From the IMG/VR virus record IMGVR_UViG_3300042558_004148, positions 207,416 to 271,415 of that record: a stretch of DNA of 64,000 nucleotides, one strand, 5' to 3'. Origin of the DNA: a virus. Position 1 is the first letter of the stretch. The number at the start of each line of letters is the position of its first letter. Below, one piece after another: positions 9,402 to 45,169 of the stretch. The notes beneath the pieces were generated by a model. That model was not told the DNA's origin. It made no database searches and saw only the letters and a program-made list of their open reading frames with translations. A program made the position numbers and the translations under genes.

Positions 9402-9610
9402 TGGTATCTGCTGATTTCGTAAGAATGATGAGAGAAAGTGATGGTACCCCGAGAAATAAGGAGTATGTTGAACAGCTAGCGAGACAACATCAATATATTC
9501 TTGAATGGGATAAAGGTATTGCATATGCTGAGACCAGATGTGGTTGGAGAGAAGAAATGCAAAGGGACAGAGAAGCGGTAAGAAGAGCAAGAGCTAGAGG
9601 ATGTTGGTAA
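9401..9610 (+). CDS. hypothetical protein
   Basis: ORF track; ATGG overlap. Confidence 0.4.
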   Translation: MVSADFVRMMRESDGTPRNKEYVEQLARQHQYILEWDKGIAYAETRCGWREEMQRDREAVRRARARGCW

Positions 9611-9770
9611 TAGTTGGTAGTTATGAATAGTCAAGAAAAAGATCAAATTTCAATAATCATTATGGTTGCCTTATATGCATTTGCATTAGGGTTTCTTACA
9701 GCATCAGTATTATTGGACGATAGAGAAGTTACCGAGGAGGATATGATAGAATTAAATCAACCACAATATT

Positions 9771-10253
9771 ATGAATAATAATCAACCATGGTTAAGAGCC
9801 AGTATAAAAATAACTAAGCCAATCCTATTAATAGATATGGACGGGGTTATTTGTGATTTTGACAAGAGAGCAAAAGAATTAGAGCAGCAAGGTGTTAAAG
9901 GTCATAGTCTTTTTAGACATCCTGATGCATACAGGGCTTTGGAACCTATAGAAGGTGCTATAGATGCATGGCATGAACTACAGGAAAAATACGAGACGTA
10001 TATCTTAAGCACTCCACCATGGAGCAATCCTGATGCTTGGTCGGAAAAAAGAATCTGGGTTCAACAACATCTAGGAGATTCGGCTAAGAAAAAATTAATC
10101 CTATGTCATAATAAGGGATTAGTTAAGGGTGATTTTCTAATCGACGATAGAATAGCCAACGGTGTTGCAGACTTTGAAGGTGAGCATATTCATTTTGCAA
10201 CCGAGAAATTTCCAGGATGGGAAACAGTATTAGAATATCTTAAATCTAAGTAA
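9771..10253 (+). CDS. HAD-family 5'(3')-deoxyribonucleotidase-like protein
   Basis: Motif I LLIDMDGVICDF and a C-terminal FLIDDR (Asp pair) are typical of NT5C-type HAD nucleotidases. Confidence 0.55.
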   Translation: MNNNQPWLRASIKITKPILLIDMDGVICDFDKRAKELEQQGVKGHSLFRHPDAYRALEPIEGAIDAWHELQEKYETYILSTPPWSNPDAWSEKRIWVQQHLGDSAKKKLILCHNKGLVKGDFLIDDRIANGVADFEGEHIHFATEKFPGWETVLEYLKSK

Positions 10254-17887: not shown

Positions 17888-18487
17888 ATGAGCTACACAG
17901 AATTTCACACAGGTAAATTATATCGCGTAAAAATCGAACACGATATAGAGGACACTTGCAGAACAATTGCAAAAAGATTTGATATTGATTTAGGTGAAGA
18001 TTGGAAAGAGGAATTCCGGGATAATTTTAACGAATATGCAAATAAAAGAGGGGATGCTAAGGAAGAATATTTCATTCACGGCGAGGATCTTTATAGAGTT
18101 ATAGATCACGAGGAAAGAGAGGATGAAGAATATTTCATGAAGCTGGATAGAAACCCGGACGGGAGCATCTCATTCATTGGACAATTCTATAATGGCGGAA
18201 CATGCTTCTCGGAGATGCTGGAGGATGCGCTAGGTGGATTGAAACCATCTTATCAAAAACAGATCAAGGAAACAATCGAGGAAATCTGTGCAACCCACGT
18301 AGTTGATAGTCCAACATCAATTCCGGGTGCAGCTAAGATGATAGCTACCTATAAAGGTCTAGAAAAAGCTATTGAGCTTTATGAGGGTGCTGCTAAAGAA
18401 ATGAAGCATGATATATTCAAATCATCAGCATATGAGGCAACATTGGAAACCATATTAAAGAATTTTAAACCAGACCAGAATGGATAA
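17888..18487 (+). CDS. hypothetical protein
   Basis: ORF track. Confidence 0.45.
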   Translation: MSYTEFHTGKLYRVKIEHDIEDTCRTIAKRFDIDLGEDWKEEFRDNFNEYANKRGDAKEEYFIHGEDLYRVIDHEEREDEEYFMKLDRNPDGSISFIGQFYNGGTCFSEMLEDALGGLKPSYQKQIKETIEEICATHVVDSPTSIPGAAKMIATYKGLEKAIELYEGAAKEMKHDIFKSSAYEATLETILKNFKPDQNG

Positions 18488-18728: not shown

Positions 18729-18931
18729 TGAGACAATTAATTTTAATAGCAATAGCTATACTCTCGATTTCATGTAATGTTGAAATGAGAATAAAAGATC
18801 ACAGTTATACCGATAAATGGCACTATGAGAATGGTAATAGATATCAGGTTTACCAAACTAAAAAAGGTACAAAATACATAATCATTTTAAATAAAAGAGA
18901 AACAAAAATGATTAGAAAGTATATAGATTAA
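18728..18931 (+). CDS. small secreted/lipoprotein-like protein
   Basis: Signal-peptide-like N-terminus ILSISC. Confidence 0.4.
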   Translation: MRQLILIAIAILSISCNVEMRIKDHSYTDKWHYENGNRYQVYQTKKGTKYIIILNKRETKMIRKYID

Positions 18932-19016
18932 TATTTTTAACCCGCATCCGCTAAAATAAATTTATCGGAATTGATGGAAAAGCATTAATGATTTGGATAT
19001 ATAAAATAAAAAAACT

Positions 19017-20054
19017 ATGGATTCAAAATCAGTAATACGATCAATCATAGAAGGAAAGAGCGGGTTACATTTTTCTAAAGGTTGTAAAAAAATGTATAAA
19101 GAACTATATGATGAGATTTGCGAAAATACAAAATTCTTAGATGAGACAAATCCAAGAATAATTGATCGAGCATATCACTACATAAATGGGATAACCGAAT
19201 CTAAAAAATGTATCGAATGTTCAAATCCTATGTCTAGGATTGATTCTACCTTTTGTTCTAAAAAATGCATGGATTCTAGTGAATTCTTAAAAAAGAAAAA
19301 GGAGGAAACAAACTTAAAGAAATTTGGTTCTACAAATGTTTCTAAAACTGATTATTTTAAGGAAAAGTATAAAAATACAATGAATAAAAAATATGGTGTA
19401 GATCATTATTCTAAAACTAAAAGCTATTTAGAAAAGTATAGGGAAACTTCTCTTGAACGATACGGAGAATCGAATCCAGCAAAAAGTGATTTGATAAAAA
19501 AGAAGACTGAAGATACCAATATTGAAAGATATGGAAGTAAAAGTCCTTTGCAAAACCCCGCAATTAAACAAAAAACCATAGAAACTTTGACCTCTAAATA
19601 CAACATCGATCATAATTCTAAAATAGAAGGAAGATATGAAAAAATGAAAGAGAATTCAAATAATAATTTTGGTACCGACCATCCGATGCAAAATGAGGAA
19701 GTTTTTGATAAATGCATGAAAAACTCTTATCGTTTCAAAGAATATAAATTACCCAGTGGTAAAATTGTTAAGGTTCAAGGATATGAGAATTTTGCTTTAG
19801 ATAAATTACTGGAGTCCTATAATGAAAATGATTTGATTATAGGGACTAAAGAGATAAAAACTATTATAGGTAGAATCGAATACTTTTTCGAAGGTGGAAA
19901 AAAAGTATATCATCCTGATATTTACATAGTATCAGAAAATAAAATTGTTGAAGTTAAGTCAGCCTACACGATTAAGCTTGATTTAGAAAAAAACGAAGCT
20001 AAAAGAAAAGCTGTTTTAGATAAAGGAATTAATTTTGAATTTATGATTTTTTAA
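19017..20054 (+). CDS. putative nuclease: Zn-ribbon + six ~23-aa tandem repeats + C-terminal PD-(D/E)xK domain
   Basis: CIECSN...CSKKC zinc ribbon. Repeats of the form K.K.E....K(Y/F)G..(H/N).... x6. C-terminal YHPDIYIV...IVEVKSAY gives D...E.K (restriction-endonuclease-like). Confidence 0.45.
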   Translation: MDSKSVIRSIIEGKSGLHFSKGCKKMYKELYDEICENTKFLDETNPRIIDRAYHYINGITESKKCIECSNPMSRIDSTFCSKKCMDSSEFLKKKKEETNLKKFGSTNVSKTDYFKEKYKNTMNKKYGVDHYSKTKSYLEKYRETSLERYGESNPAKSDLIKKKTEDTNIERYGSKSPLQNPAIKQKTIETLTSKYNIDHNSKIEGRYEKMKENSNNNFGTDHPMQNEEVFDKCMKNSYRFKEYKLPSGKIVKVQGYENFALDKLLESYNENDLIIGTKEIKTIIGRIEYFFEGGKKVYHPDIYIVSENKIVEVKSAYTIKLDLEKNEAKRKAVLDKGINFEFMIF

Positions 20055-20064
20055 TTTTACAAAT

Positions 20065-20922
20065 ATGAAAGACCCAATCGGAGATCGTATGAAATCTTTT
20101 TATGAAGATAGAACTCGATACAAGTTAACAAGAAGAACTTACACAATCATAAGAATTGACGGCAAGTCATTTAGTAATTACACAAAGGGATTAGAAAGAC
20201 CTTTCGACGAAGGACTAATCAATGACATGAATGCTACCACTGCATACCTTTGCAAAAACATTCAAGGAGCTAAATTAGGTTATGTACAATCAGACGAGAT
20301 TAGTTTAGTTCTAACTGACTTCGATGATCTAGGAACACATGCTTGGTTTGATAACAACCTACAGAAAATGGCGTCTGTAGCTGCTTCTATGGCAACAGCT
20401 AAATTTAATGAATTAAGGATTGCTAGAGCTTTTAGACAATATGAATGTCTATTCGATACGCCATTACAGATGAATGCCGATGAGATATTAGAATTTCTAT
20501 CTAAAATCAAGAAAGCTGAGTTTGACGCTAGGGTATTCCAAATCCCTTTTATCGACGAGGTTTGCAACTATTTTATTTGGAGACAACAAGATGCAGTAAG
20601 AAACTCAATTTCTTCGGTTGCACAAAGCCTTTATAGTACAAAAGAACTACATGGGGTTAAGACTGATGGAATGCAAGACCTAATCTTTCAGAAAGGAATC
20701 AATTGGAATGACTATGATTTTCGTAAGAAAAGAGGAGCAGTAATTGGCAAAGTAGAAAAGTTATTTACAAAGACCTCAAATTATTATGATCCTAATACAT
20801 CTTACATCCCGTCTGAACACATTTTTACTAGAAATGTATGGGAAGTTATTGAAACCCCAACGTTCACTCAAGACAAAGATTTTCTTAGAGATATTCTAAA
20901 CAAAGAAATAAAATCAGTTTAA
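20065..20922 (+). CDS. Thg1-like protein (tRNA-His guanylyltransferase family, 3'-5' polymerase)
   Basis: IIRIDGKSFSNYTKGLERPFDE, GYVQSDEISLVL and NNLQKMASVAASMATAKF align with the Thg1/TLP palm-domain motifs (RiDG..F, QSDE). Confidence 0.8.
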   Translation: MKDPIGDRMKSFYEDRTRYKLTRRTYTIIRIDGKSFSNYTKGLERPFDEGLINDMNATTAYLCKNIQGAKLGYVQSDEISLVLTDFDDLGTHAWFDNNLQKMASVAASMATAKFNELRIARAFRQYECLFDTPLQMNADEILEFLSKIKKAEFDARVFQIPFIDEVCNYFIWRQQDAVRNSISSVAQSLYSTKELHGVKTDGMQDLIFQKGINWNDYDFRKKRGAVIGKVEKLFTKTSNYYDPNTSYIPSEHIFTRNVWEVIETPTFTQDKDFLRDILNKEIKSV

Positions 20923-25106: not shown

Positions 25107-25295
25107 ATGGAGAGATATAAAATAACGTGCAGGATCGAAACCGAATCTTGGAGAAAAACTATCGAATGCAGAGAAATGACAATTAAGGATGGTGCATATT
25201 GTTTTTGGACAGGTGAATATGGAAACACAAATAGATTAATATGGTCATTTCCGGTGATGTTCACGATAATTGAGGCTATAGAAGAAGAAAATTAA
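25107..25295 (+). CDS. hypothetical protein
   Basis: ORF track. Confidence 0.35.
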   Translation: MERYKITCRIETESWRKTIECREMTIKDGAYCFWTGEYGNTNRLIWSFPVMFTIIEAIEEEN

Positions 25296-42067: not shown

Positions 42068-42817
42068 ATGAATAAGATATTAGAATCTTTAAGACCTTTC
42101 TGCTCTGTTAAAAATGCAGGACCAGCATACCTAAATGGAGCTGAGCCAACACCAAGAGTTAGATTTATCATTGATCTTTTAGATGAGATGAAAATACCTT
42201 ATGAAATTGACAGCTTCCTGTTCAATGATATAAATCTATATAATGTGATATTGAGAGGAACCAGCAAAAGAATGGTGGTAGCACATCATGATATAGTTAA
42301 TCCAGATTCTGAGAATGCGAATGACAATTCAGCATCAGTCCTTAATGCGATATATTTAAAATCGATACTTCCTGAGATCAATGTAGTTCTGACAGATGCC
42401 GAGGAGGTTGGTCTTAGAGGTGCATCACATTTGGCAGAACAAATATTGGCTGGAGAATTTGGAGAAATTGAATGGGTATTAAATTTGGAATTAAGTGGAG
42501 CTGGCGGTAAGAATTTTATGATAGGATCACATAAGGGTAAACTTACAGACAGGATTGTCGAGATGTTTAATGCACCAGTAGTTCAAACTCCTCCTAGCGA
42601 TTCTTATGCATTTGAAAGATATGGCATAGATACCAATGTAATAAACCCATTATCGCTATTGAATGAAGGAGAATCTAGTATATTGAGTGAGTCAGGATAT
42701 TTAGATAACTCATCATGGTGGTTGTGTCATACCATGGAGGACACTGCGGATAAGTTATCAACAAAAGATATGTATGATTTTGTCAACGAGGTTCTTGTAC
42801 CCATAGTTTCGGAATAA
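42068..42817 (+). CDS. M28/M20-type zinc exopeptidase-like protein
   Basis: VVAHHDIV....DNSASVLNAIYL and VVLTDAEEVGLRGASH match the metal-ligand layout of M28/M42 peptidases (H.D ... D ... EE ... H). Confidence 0.5.
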   Translation: MNKILESLRPFCSVKNAGPAYLNGAEPTPRVRFIIDLLDEMKIPYEIDSFLFNDINLYNVILRGTSKRMVVAHHDIVNPDSENANDNSASVLNAIYLKSILPEINVVLTDAEEVGLRGASHLAEQILAGEFGEIEWVLNLELSGAGGKNFMIGSHKGKLTDRIVEMFNAPVVQTPPSDSYAFERYGIDTNVINPLSLLNEGESSILSESGYLDNSSWWLCHTMEDTADKLSTKDMYDFVNEVLVPIVSE

Positions 42818-43032
42818 TGAATTATTTGATATATAAATCTATGTTTGGTGCCATTATAATAAAATCTAGGGATGTTCAGGAAGCTAAAGAAAAATGGGGC
42901 TCAGAAATGGTCGACTCATTATTTAAGTTGTTAAATGGAAATCATCCGGATCACATTATAAAAAACCTAGAATCAGAGGATAAATTTGAAGAAGCTAAAT
43001 GCTTGATGTTTATACTTAGAAATAGAAAATAA
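42817..43032 (+). CDS. hypothetical protein
   Basis: ORF track. Confidence 0.4.
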   Translation: MNYLIYKSMFGAIIIKSRDVQEAKEKWGSEMVDSLFKLLNGNHPDHIIKNLESEDKFEEAKCLMFILRNRK

Positions 43033-43118
43033 TTTTGAAACATAACATCAAATAGGTGATATAAAAATAGAACACTAAGAGGTTTAGTAATAGACAATCA
43101 TAGATGTTTGTTTTGGTT

Positions 43119-43148
43119 CACCAGAGTCTTTTTAAGACTCTGGTTTTT
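43119..43148 (+). terminator. rho-independent terminator
   Basis: ACCAGAGTCTttttaAGACTCTGGT + TTTTTATT. Confidence 0.65.
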
Positions 43149-43173
43149 TATTAAAAATAATTTTAAATAACTA

Positions 43174-43353
43174 TGACAAATTCAGAGCAAATTGAAGAGA
43201 TTATGTACGAGGCATATAATCTTAAAATACACAGAAAGGTGTTCGATCTTGCAAAAAAACATATAGACGAAGGTTCACTTGCTGTTGATGCTTATGAGAA
43301 AGCATTAAGAACAGTGAAAGAGAATAGAAGAAGAGAGATCGCTGCTAGATAGT
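43174..43353 (+). CDS. small hypothetical protein (59 aa)
   Basis: ATG directly after the terminator. Below the ORF-track size cutoff. Coordinates approximate. Confidence 0.3.
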
Positions 43354-43653
43354 GATCTCTTTTTCATTTAAGTCGACTTTATTTTCTGGCTTCAATAAAT
43401 AATACAATCCAAAAAACAATGCCGATATGGAATAGAAAATTATATCGGTTACCCAATATGATCCAGTCCACTTCATCACAAGAGCGAATAGTGCGTCGAA
43501 TCCCAATGGATTGAAGAAAGTTGCTAGGATAAGAATTAGTGTTCTTATTTTTTTCTTTTTGTTCACGTTTAAAACTATCGGGGTCCATAGAGGAATTAAT
43601 TTTCTAAACATATGATATACAATATAATATGTTACGGGATTCAAGTTATCCAT
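43345..43653 (-). CDS. small membrane protein
   Basis: Three hydrophobic helices. Confidence 0.4.
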   Translation of the reverse strand: MDNLNPVTYYIVYHMFRKLIPLWTPIVLNVNKKKKIRTLILILATFFNPLGFDALFALVMKWTGSYWVTDIIFYSISALFFGLYYLLKPENKVDLNEKEITI

Positions 43654-43878
43654 CTCTATATATTTATTTCCGAAATTTTTTTATATTCCCGCATATAATA
43701 CTTATATTTACAAATTATTAACTAGTTTAAATTAATATGTCGGTAATTTCAAACAATAAGTATGACATGTTTAATTGGGTTGAGAAAATAATTGGCTCTT
43801 ATAAAACTTTAGATCATACTAATGGTTCTGATAGATTATAAGAGAGGTTTAAGATTAAATCAATGAAAAAAAGAAAAT

Positions 43879-44598
43879 ATGAACTTTGATATAAATAATT
43901 TCAACAAACTAGGTTATGTAATAGTAAAAGATTTTTTATCTGAAGATGAACTAAAAACTTTATTAGAAACATCACAAAAGCATTATGAGTATTCTCTTAA
44001 CTTAAGGGAACATGAAGGCAACTACAGACTAAACAGTCCAACTAATTTAAACAAAATAGAGGGTGCCTGCGATTACGAACCTGAGTTTTTGAAGATAGCA
44101 AAAAATAAAATTTTAGTAGATACTGCCAAGAAATTAATTAATACCGAGGAAACATTGGATGTTTATATATCTAAATTTTTCCCTATGAAACCTAAAGTGG
44201 GAATATCAACATTTTTCCACCAAGACAATTTCTATTTTGGAGGCGATCCCAATACCATAATTAGTTGTGCTCTATATTTTCAAGATACGAATAAAGAAAA
44301 TGGTTGCTTAAGAATCATTCCGGGGTCCCATAATATAGGAATAATAAGACATGATATATCTTCTCATATAGGAGGTATAAGGTGGATAGATGAAAAAATA
44401 CTAAATCCTAATGCGATATTAGATTTAGAACTGGATGCTCCATATGCTGTGTTTTTTAATATTAATATGATACATGGGTGTTATCCAAACACATCAAACG
44501 GGACTCGATTTAGCTTAGCATGGGAATACATAGAATCTAGTAATAGTAAAGTAGCACACTCACCAGATAATTGGTGTGATAGAAACTTAGTAGGATAA
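43879..44598 (+). CDS. phytanoyl-CoA dioxygenase (PhyH) family 2OG-Fe(II) oxygenase
   Basis: FHQDNFYF...CALYFQDTNKENGCLRIIPGSH matches the PhyH H.D ... eNG.l.viPGSH pattern. Confidence 0.6.
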   Translation: MNFDINNFNKLGYVIVKDFLSEDELKTLLETSQKHYEYSLNLREHEGNYRLNSPTNLNKIEGACDYEPEFLKIAKNKILVDTAKKLINTEETLDVYISKFFPMKPKVGISTFFHQDNFYFGGDPNTIISCALYFQDTNKENGCLRIIPGSHNIGIIRHDISSHIGGIRWIDEKILNPNAILDLELDAPYAVFFNINMIHGCYPNTSNGTRFSLAWEYIESSNSKVAHSPDNWCDRNLVG

Positions 44599-44599
44599 T

Positions 44600-45169
44600 A
44601 TGAGTTCTCTAAGATTTAATCCTCCGAAACAATGGAATAATAATTTTGGTAATAGATACTTTTTGGGACTTACTGACTTGATGTATGACTTATACGGTAC
44701 CTTATTAAACCGACCTAATTTAAAGATGCTGGAAATTGGGTCTTATAAAGGAGAATCAGCTTTTATGTTTGCTTCTCTAGGTATATTTACAGAGATACAT
44801 TGCATTGATCCCTTAGAAGGTGTGGAAGAGTCAAATGATATTTTTACTGAGAATTGGGACAATGTTAAGAATGAATTTAAACTAAATACTCGTTACTTCG
44901 ATAATGTAACCCTGCATCAAGGATTTAGTTATAATTTGGTTAATAATTTTGAAGACAATTATTTTGACTTTATATACATTGATGGTAATCACTCATACGA
45001 GGATGCAAAAAAAGACATTGAATTATACCTTCCAAAAACTAAACATTTAATGGGTGGACATGATTATCAAAAAGAATGGCCTGGAGTAATCAAGGCAGTA
45101 GATGAAATCTTTGGTAAACCTCATAAAACATATTCCGACGGAAGTTGGATAAAATCAATTAAGTCATGA
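44600..45169 (+). CDS. class I SAM-dependent methyltransferase (Methyltransf_24-like)
   Basis: MLEIGSYKGESAFMFAS (motif I) ... IDGNHSYEDAKKD ... GGHDY; tight ATGA coupling to the dioxygenase gene. Confidence 0.5.
   Translation: MSSLRFNPPKQWNNNFGNRYFLGLTDLMYDLYGTLLNRPNLKMLEIGSYKGESAFMFASLGIFTEIHCIDPLEGVEESNDIFTENWDNVKNEFKLNTRYFDNVTLHQGFSYNLVNNFEDNYFDFIYIDGNHSYEDAKKDIELYLPKTKHLMGGHDYQKEWPGVIKAVDEIFGKPHKTYSDGSWIKSIKS

Follow-up and report, generated by a model that had tools for sequence, protein, structure and literature searches.

The window analysed here is a 64,000-nucleotide stretch of a virus record (IMGVR_UViG_3300042558_004148, positions 207,416 to 271,415), and all coordinates refer to this stretch. 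An open reading frame at positions 19017 to 20054 on the plus strand, with an ATG start and its own stop codon, encodes a protein of 345 amino acids (aa); its stop codon is separated by a gap of 10 nt from a Thg1-like 3'-5' nucleotidyltransferase gene on the same strand (20065-20922; Pfam PF04446, E = 4e-28). A sequence-only reading of this DNA, made without database searches, had described the frame as a modular nuclease with a zinc ribbon, six tandem repeats of about 23 aa carrying a KYG motif, and a C-terminal PD-(D/E)xK core with a D...E.K signature, lying directly upstream of a Thg1-like gene, and the analyses below bear out each part of that description. The GC content of the nuclease gene is 27.9%, compared with 34.6 ± 2.1% for the window; 0.8% of equal-sized segments are as low, and the gene is the lowest-GC stretch for its size in that part of the window. 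Searches with tblastn recovered no paralogues of the nuclease within the window, and scans for consensus promoters and terminators across 18.4 to 21.2 kb gave matches no commoner than in shuffled sequence. The window has the look of a region of accessory genes in a large T4-related phage: its other products include an RNA ligase, a GDP-mannose dehydratase-type enzyme, an NAPRTase, an SPFH protein, and an M16 peptidase, relatives occur on contigs as long as 399 kb, and related loci encode Gp23 and gene-30.3 domains. A megablast comparison of the 14- to 26-kb part of the window with 50,697 phage records recovered no near-identical genomes. Thg1 is itself only sporadically present in jumbo phages (PMC7824862).

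The protein begins with a helical domain (aa 1 to 60, positions 19017 to 19196, plus strand, as are all features described here) that AlphaFold2 models as five helices with pLDDT of at least 90. This domain carries the conserved pattern T.FL...R..H(I/Y).N, is common to many homologues, and is partly enclosed by a match to phrog_3339 (aa 36 to 241). A zinc ribbon or treble clef follows (aa 61 to 88, positions 19197 to 19280), with cysteines at C65 and C68, which are invariant among 50 homologues, and at C80 and C84, which are at least 90% conserved in the same set; the corresponding profile matches, to the Pfam DUF2116 treble clef and to YacG (the sole NCBIfam match), are weak. Next come six tandem 23-aa repeats of the form K..T....(Y/F)G (aa 89 to 226, positions 19281 to 19694) and an alpha/beta TnsA-like PD-(D/E)xK nuclease domain (aa 241 to 345, positions 19737 to 20051). 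The AlphaFold2 model as a whole, built with 50 homologues, has a mean pLDDT of 92.8 and no segments below 50.

All six repeat units are exactly 23 aa long, with [YF]G at residues 103, 126, 149, 172, and 218 and YN at residue 195. The protein compared with itself at an offset of 23 scored 151, whereas the best offset in 2000 shuffles scored -0.3 ± 9.6 (z of about 16), and the next-ranked offsets were 46 and 69. In the model each unit folds as a 15-residue helix followed by a short helix, the two joined by a (K/R)(Y/F)G turn; repeat positions 19 to 21 fall in this short helix after the YG turn. The same architecture extends across the family, since a 23-aa motif spacing is dominant among 120 homologues (537 cases), in which the length of the repeat run varies from about 2 to 12. 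Profile matches in the repeat region are to the N-terminal part of DUF7487 and to PHROG families annotated as homing endonucleases, the latter being confined to the N-terminal and repeat regions of the protein, and we predict that the array is a DNA-recognition module. Profiles for NUMOD1, NUMOD3, and NUMOD4 are absent among the Pfam matches of the protein at E values up to 1; the KYG repeat and NUMOD are different modules.

The strongest profile match is to Pfam DUF7487 (PF24308), at 213.2 bits (E = 5.7e-63; residues 139 to 337), which passes the gathering threshold of 27 bits, and PF24308 is present in all 120 listed homologues. TnsA_N (PF08722) scores 22.1 bits, under its gathering threshold of 26.5 bits, and a homologue in Vibrio phage Va1 barely passes that threshold at 26.6 bits. 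The modelled domain has the alpha-beta-beta-beta-alpha-beta core of the PD-(D/E)xK superfamily, in which D301 lies just ahead of a strand at residues 302 to 304, and E312 and K314 lie on a strand at residues 309 to 314. Invariant positions among the 50 homologues are E257, E270, P300-D301, E312-V-K314, and K329, and E257, D301, E312, and K314 are the predicted catalytic residues. Searches of PDB sequences with the single protein and with a 50-sequence profile gave no meaningful matches, and a Foldseek search of the PDB returned nothing at E ≤ 0.001, with weak matches to cap-snatching PD-(D/E)xK endonucleases only. The nuclease domain is closest in fold to TnsA, with a canonical D...ExK site. 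The likeness to TnsA of Tn7 (PDB 1t0f) is one of fold and not of system: the N-terminal architecture differs, genes resembling TnsB, TnsC, or TnsD are absent among the neighboring open reading frames in the window and in related loci, and there are no transposon ends nearby. Two findings had been named as capable of overturning the nuclease assignment, namely, structure prediction without a PD-(D/E)xK fold and repeats found in this protein only; the assignment withstands both, because the model confirms the fold and the repeats occur in other proteins as well.

Relatives of the nuclease with 43 to 95% identity, all of them metagenome derived, lie directly 5' of a Thg1 gene in seven distinct neighborhoods (the window and loci L171, L006, L170, L001, L004, and L172). 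The closest relatives in this position are P0001 (95% identity), P0004 (69%), P0006 and P0007 (both 66%), P0012 (48%), and P0013 (43%), and the genes farther out from the nuclease-Thg1 pair vary from case to case. A comparison with related phages that lack the gene had been proposed alongside the nuclease assignment. None of 80 viral IMG/VR contigs with Thg1 relatives (40 to 79% identity) carries a DUF7487 gene within 6 kb of Thg1; loci L008 to L012 have the Thg1 genes nearest to that of the window (78 to 79%) yet lack DUF7487 within 6 kb; and at clean empty sites, among them L031, L032, and L056, a homologue of the window open reading frame at 17888 to 18487 abuts Thg1. Such patchy presence at one locus across related genomes is characteristic of free-standing homing endonuclease genes. 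An association with Thg1 across the whole DUF7487 family was also considered and was rejected: among 80 distant DUF7487 loci (32 to 42% identity), Thg1 lies within 5 kb in 2 and is adjacent in neither. On these comparisons, the link to Thg1 is specific to the clade of the window nuclease.

The DNA around the nuclease gene retains scars of insertion into Thg1. Immediately upstream, positions 18962 to 18986 hold a 25-nt sequence (TTATCGGAATTGATGGAAAAGCATT) that matches Thg1 codons 28 to 36. Compared with Thg1 alleles without a nuclease gene, this vestige matches nt 83 to 106, at 21 of 24 positions against L018; in each of the 8 nuclease-free Thg1 genes examined, its best match falls at this gene position, and the maximum reached in 300 shuffling trials was 20 of 24. 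The vestige is conserved in all six cassettes whose 150 nt of upstream sequence were aligned, the window included, and we interpret it as what remained of the old target site, on its left side, after the element inserted into Thg1; it corresponds to the left half of that site. Between the vestige and the start codon lies a conserved 5' leader of the element (AATGATTTGGATATATAAAATAAAAAAACT; 18987 to 19016), within which the block GATATATAAA is invariant in the six cassettes and which may contain a putative promoter or ribosome-binding site; the junction of vestige and leader in the aligned cassettes reads …GATGGAAAAGCATT|AATGATTTGGATATATAAAATAAAAA…ATG. Two other loci retain a longer remnant, a truncated Thg1 duplicate of 36 to 37 codons upstream of the nuclease gene (4826 to 4939 in L170 and 9556 to 9666 in L001), whose sequence (MKDALGDRMKDFYEDRTRIRLPRRTYTIIRIDGKAFH*) is of the nuclease-free allele type, unlike the full-length Thg1 downstream in the same genome. 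In L172, the nuclease gene splits Thg1 after codon 38, leaving a 41-aa piece upstream and a 198-aa piece, starting at codon 43, downstream. These three kinds of footprint have breakpoints that all fall within about 7 nt, in codons 36 to 38, in the region encoding the catalytic RIDGKAFH motif of Thg1. The footprints indicate that the element is located inside a former Thg1 gene at codons 36 to 38, and the neighboring Thg1-like gene is best read as its target and not as a chance neighbor. An intron-encoded enzyme is not supported: Rfam searches of L172 and L170 at E values up to 1 found no intron or other RNA families, and the open reading frame has its own ATG and stop.

From these sequence comparisons, we consider it highly probable that the open reading frame encodes the endonuclease of a free-standing homing element, with neither intron nor intein, that targets the phage Thg1-like gene. 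The sequence-only reading had left a choice between such an element and a defense or anti-defense nuclease; presence and absence among related loci, the footprints, co-conversion (see below), and the repeats shared with the putative homing endonuclease F-LimIII favor the former, and the latter half of the suggestion finds no counterpart in PADLOC-DB, in which 5027 defense-system models gave no matches at E values up to 0.1. A nuclease serving phage-phage competition or anti-defense, placed beside Thg1 by virtue of a variable accessory hot spot, would account for the varied content upstream of Thg1 among related phages and for a GC content as low as that of acquired DNA, and it overlaps with homing insofar as cutting the Thg1 of a rival would also exclude the rival's markers; we nevertheless regard it as improbable, given that every copy shares one Thg1 junction at the nucleotide level, with duplications of the target gene, in addition to the PADLOC result.

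A comparison of the window with L171 points to recent movement of the free-standing homing element. The DNA shared by the two is confined to 18916 to 20908; identity is 96 to 99% between about 18950 and about 20186 and drops beyond that to 84%, then 67%, then 52%, and the sequence farther upstream is unrelated. The Thg1 codons 1 to 36, which form the replacement 5' end in the window (20065 to 20172), lie within this tract: nt 1 to 120 of the L171 Thg1 are 97 to 100% identical to the window and 67 to 70% identical to the nuclease-free allele of L008, and nt 121 to 300 are 92 to 97% identical to L008 and 75 to 85% identical to the window. Because identity switches from window to L008, the L171 Thg1 is a chimera with its junction at codon ~40, just past the altered codons described below, and the identity profile is a mosaic in which the window Thg1 from about 20186 onward lies outside the recently transferred tract. 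Near-identical copies, unrelated flanks, and a mosaic Thg1 together indicate recent transfer of a mobile unit that, as delimited by this profile, spans about 1.2 kb (approximately 18987 to 20186 in the window) and takes in the leader and the endonuclease gene as well as Thg1 codons 1 to ~40; the co-conversion tract ends at the predicted target. Neither Thg1 as the target nor the inclusion of the first ~36 to 40 codons of Thg1 in the element had been noticed in the sequence-only reading. It is very unlikely that the gene is a homing endonuclease relic, whether inactive or domesticated, that now passes only vertically along with Thg1: divergence of the nuclease and of Thg1 is similar in several pairs (66 and 65%, 69 and 64%, and 48 and 45% identity, respectively), as vertical inheritance would have it, but the catalytic residues are all invariant in the 50 homologues, the zinc-binding C80 and C84 are at least 90% conserved, and the 96 to 99% identity between window and L171 DNA, between unrelated flanks and next to a mosaic downstream Thg1, reflects recent transfer.

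The recognition and cut sites of the homing endonuclease were inferred only from the breakpoints and the allele differences. The predicted target, …GACGGAAARGCATTTCACACYTAY…, is about 25 bp long and encodes the Thg1 active-site motif RIDGKAFHTY, and the predicted cut-prone site type is GACGGAAAGGCATTTCACACTTATACG. In human Thg1, the equivalent of the Asp in this motif is the catalytic residue D29, and the equivalent of the His is H34, which contacts the nucleotide (PMC6471195, PMC9508852). The 5' region of L008-type Thg1 carries …ATCCGTATCGACGGAAAGGCATTTCACACTTATACGAAAGG…, and the allele of the window itself reads …ATAAGAATTGACGGCAAGTCATTTAGTAATTACACAAAGGG…. The difference lies in codons 37 and 38 (20173 to 20178), which are AGT AAT (Ser-Asn) in the window, where the site TTT AGT AAT occupies 20170 to 20178, and CAC ACY (His-Thr) in alleles without the nuclease gene. 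About 70 distinct nuclease-free Thg1 alleles encode FH(T/S), with DNA of the form …GCATTTCACACYTAY…; the exceptions are L049 (FST) and L040, which has diverged at the residues before the site (MKAGHT). Carrier alleles encode FSN in the window, L171, L170, and L001 and FKN in L006 (AGT AAT and AAG AAT, respectively), so that F(S/K)N occurs in 4 of 5 carrier lineages. L004 carries the nuclease yet encodes FHS, with DNA that differs at several wobble positions; carriers and noncarriers differ at a site near the insertion point, with L004 as the exception at the protein level. The change at codons 37 and 38 would plausibly confer immunity from self-cleavage, and it may represent one or two evolutionary events only, so its link with carriage of the nuclease is not statistically independent and counts as support and not as proof. 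Loss of the His equivalent to H34 might impair Thg1, which fits poorly with a harmless element.

Together these features suggest a mechanism by which the element could spread. The N-terminal domain, zinc ribbon, and six KYG repeats would recognize the RIDGKAFH-coding DNA, and the TnsA-like PD-(D/E)xK domain (E257/D301/E312/K314) would cut it, so that in a coinfection the enzyme would break the Thg1 allele without the element. Repair from the carrier genome would then copy the element together with a short flanking stretch of Thg1. Since the element brings a start codon and the first 36 codons, to which recipient codons 37 to the end are rejoined, Thg1 is kept intact, and the displaced old 5' end stays upstream, where it decays, being complete in L170 and L001 and reduced to 25 nt in the window. 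The AGT AAT in the element's copy of the site would protect the carrier from self-cleavage. The layout in L170 and L001 would be expected from invasion of the donor Thg1 by the right side of the break and leftward synthesis through the element, followed by joining of the left end without long homology. A two-gene repair or editing cassette, in which the nuclease would trim damaged or mismatched tRNA 5' ends for the 3'-5' polymerase to rebuild, draws on the adjacency to Thg1 and on some RNA-repair neighbors in L171, but it has very little probability in our judgment, as 80 of 80 other phage Thg1 genes have no nuclease, Thg1 is missing within 5 kb at 78 of 80 more distant DUF7487 loci, the window contains no tRNA genes, and such a cassette does not account for the displaced 5' ends, the vestige, the split Thg1 of L172, or the mosaic boundary at codon ~40.

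The free-standing homing element proposed here has clear parallels among T4-like phages, where SegF, SegG, and MobE are free-standing homing endonucleases that carry out "intronless homing" (PMC2988022, PMC2790892). As in those systems, the nuclease is encoded by a stand-alone gene with its own start and stop, located beside a conserved gene that bears the site in element-free genomes, with a patchy distribution among related phages and co-conversion of flanking markers. SegF, SegG, and MobE differ in being GIY-YIG or HNH enzymes with NUMOD-type DNA-binding modules and an intergenic location, whereas the present nuclease combines a TnsA-like PD-(D/E)xK domain with a KYG array, lies inside the target coding sequence, and carries a duplicate of the 5' end of its target. 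MobE has also been found to split nrdA in Aeromonas phage Aeh1, described as "genes in pieces" (PMC3045599), and L172 shows the same layout, with its Thg1 in two pieces, of 41 and 198 aa, on either side of the DUF7487 gene; unlike Aeh1 nrdA, the window Thg1 is whole by way of the element-borne first 36 codons. Known homing endonucleases with the PD-(D/E)xK fold are I-Ssp6803I and a Vsr-like, or EDxHD, family that includes I-Bth0305I (PMC2677866). These enzymes have no relationship to the window nuclease at the sequence level, are intron encoded or intein associated, and lack a zinc ribbon and 23-aa repeat array, and the canonical D...ExK site of the window nuclease contrasts with the Vsr-type His site.

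F-LimIII of Dickeya phage LIMEstone1, annotated as a putative homing endonuclease, shares the KYG repeat module; it matches DUF7487 profile positions 1 to 89 (E = 3e-18), and its gene sits between conserved baseplate genes. It differs in its length of 547 aa and in its nuclease domain, which is Vsr/DUF559/MTES_1575-like and not TnsA-like. A further parallel is the mitochondrial atp6 gene of the fungus Allomyces, where, reportedly (Paquin et al., 1994), a mobile endonuclease open reading frame together with a piece of the host gene replaces the resident end. The displaced end is said to persist there as a pseudogene fragment, the replaced piece being the 3' end and the enzyme of the GIY-YIG type, so that the Thg1 element resembles its mirror image, with the 5' end replaced, in a phage, and with an enzyme of the PD-(D/E)xK type.

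Homing behavior itself is known from T4-like phages; the present gene belongs to an uncharacterized endonuclease family, for which it provides a predicted target and an element whose architecture is unusual. We found no papers naming DUF7487 and no characterized member, nor any papers linking TnsA with free-standing homing endonucleases in phage. The Thg1 locus gives DUF7487 a concrete proposed role in homing, with a predicted target of about 25 bp and a predicted resistant allele, and if cleavage proves true the family would be a third lineage of PD-(D/E)xK-fold homing endonucleases. The locus also illustrates a less familiar lifestyle, that of a selfish element that occupies a coding sequence with the help of neither intron nor intein and supplies a replacement 5' end. 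A more speculative point concerns how the repeats read DNA. At repeat positions 19 to 21, the commonest residue accounts for 50% between repeats, and conservation among the Thg1-target orthologues is 77 to 87%. It is conceivable, though we think it doubtful, that the KYG repeats form a modular array, every repeat touching the target at a fixed step, with specificity coming from positions 19 to 21 and from repeat number. If so, the family would pair a TALE-like recognition scaffold with exchangeable nucleases, the TnsA-like one described here and the Vsr-like one of F-LimIII, and the predicted Thg1 site would be the first repeat-to-sequence pairing from which to work out a code. Architectures of this type, with variable-length repeats and swappable nuclease domains, have been useful in engineering DNA-targeting proteins.

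The DUF7487 family is large: the search recovered 572 homologues at E ≤ 1e-5, and IMG/VR contains at least 520 confirmed matches. Jumbo phages carry members of the family, as do giant viruses of eukaryotes (Marseillevirus, Klosneuvirus, and iridoviruses). Structural relatives are found in many phages as well as in Marseillevirus, Klosneuvirus, and iridoviruses. Copy number can be high, with 13 matching places in one 462-kb phage and 5 to 9 in Lak phages (LR756500 is a record with 13 copies), and in Vibrio phage Va1 one DUF7487 copy adjoins the major capsid gene, gp23.

In one related viral locus (L172, positions 468 to 2326), the Thg1 gene is broken by a DUF7487 gene whose product is a 43% identical relative of the endonuclease in the window. 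The interruption leaves an N-terminal piece of 41 amino acids and a C-terminal piece of 198 amino acids, with approximately 4 codons absent between them, and no intron was detected at this split gene with Rfam. Alleles of Thg1 that adjoin the endonuclease also differ at codon 37 (20173 to 20175 in the window), where a nearly invariant histidine is replaced by serine or lysine. The equivalent of this histidine in human Thg1, H34, is in contact with the activation-site nucleotide (PMC9508852, PMC6471195); replacement of the histidine may be a functional cost of putative target-site immunity. On the side of the endonuclease, the residues at positions 19 to 21 of the KYG-type repeats (19281 to 19694), in the short helix that follows the YG turn, vary from one repeat to the next and are 77 to 87% conserved across orthologues that have Thg1 as their common target; they are candidate specificity determinants.

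The two genes lie farther apart in another viral contig (L092, 4920 to 7964), in which a DUF7487 gene (38% identical) is located 1.1 kb upstream of a Thg1 gene in the same orientation and is separated from it by three small open reading frames (ORFs); this proximity could be an older, eroded form of the same association, or a coincidence. The surroundings of the cassette also differ between loci. The window segment at 25155 to 25295 has 79% identity to the small ORF directly upstream of the cassette in the related locus L171 (4761 to 4901), which identifies the same accessory gene 5 kb away in the window and illustrates how gene order has been shuffled among these phages.

Further candidate insertions and nuclease genes lie near cassettes in other relatives. 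At 9556 to 10000 in L001, the displaced remnant of Thg1, 36 codons long, is separated by a 70-amino-acid ORF (9692 to 9904) from the short vestige preceding the endonuclease gene, an arrangement suggestive of another insertion nested at the same site. In L005 (5233 to 6652), and likewise in L004, a T4 gene-30.3-like gene (PF08010) is present in two pieces of 38 and 153 amino acids with a LEM-3-type GIY-YIG ORF between them; it is apparently another gene fractured by a homing endonuclease, with the DUF7487-Thg1 pair lying ∼1.5 kb downstream of it. In the 399-kb relative (L001/L002, 18486 to 19313), a separate ORF of 251 to 275 amino acids with a TnsA_N-like domain (PF08722) lies downstream of the DUF7487-Thg1 pair, at a distance of ∼7 kb, and may represent another nuclease of the fold class of the DUF7487 protein. 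Lastly, the window itself contains another low-GC patch at 42800 to 44700 (28 to 29% GC, compared to 34.6% window-wide), similar in this respect to the endonuclease region; it carries ORFs of 71, 102, and 239 amino acids, the second of them membrane-like and encoded on the minus strand, and could be a further acquired or mobile insert.
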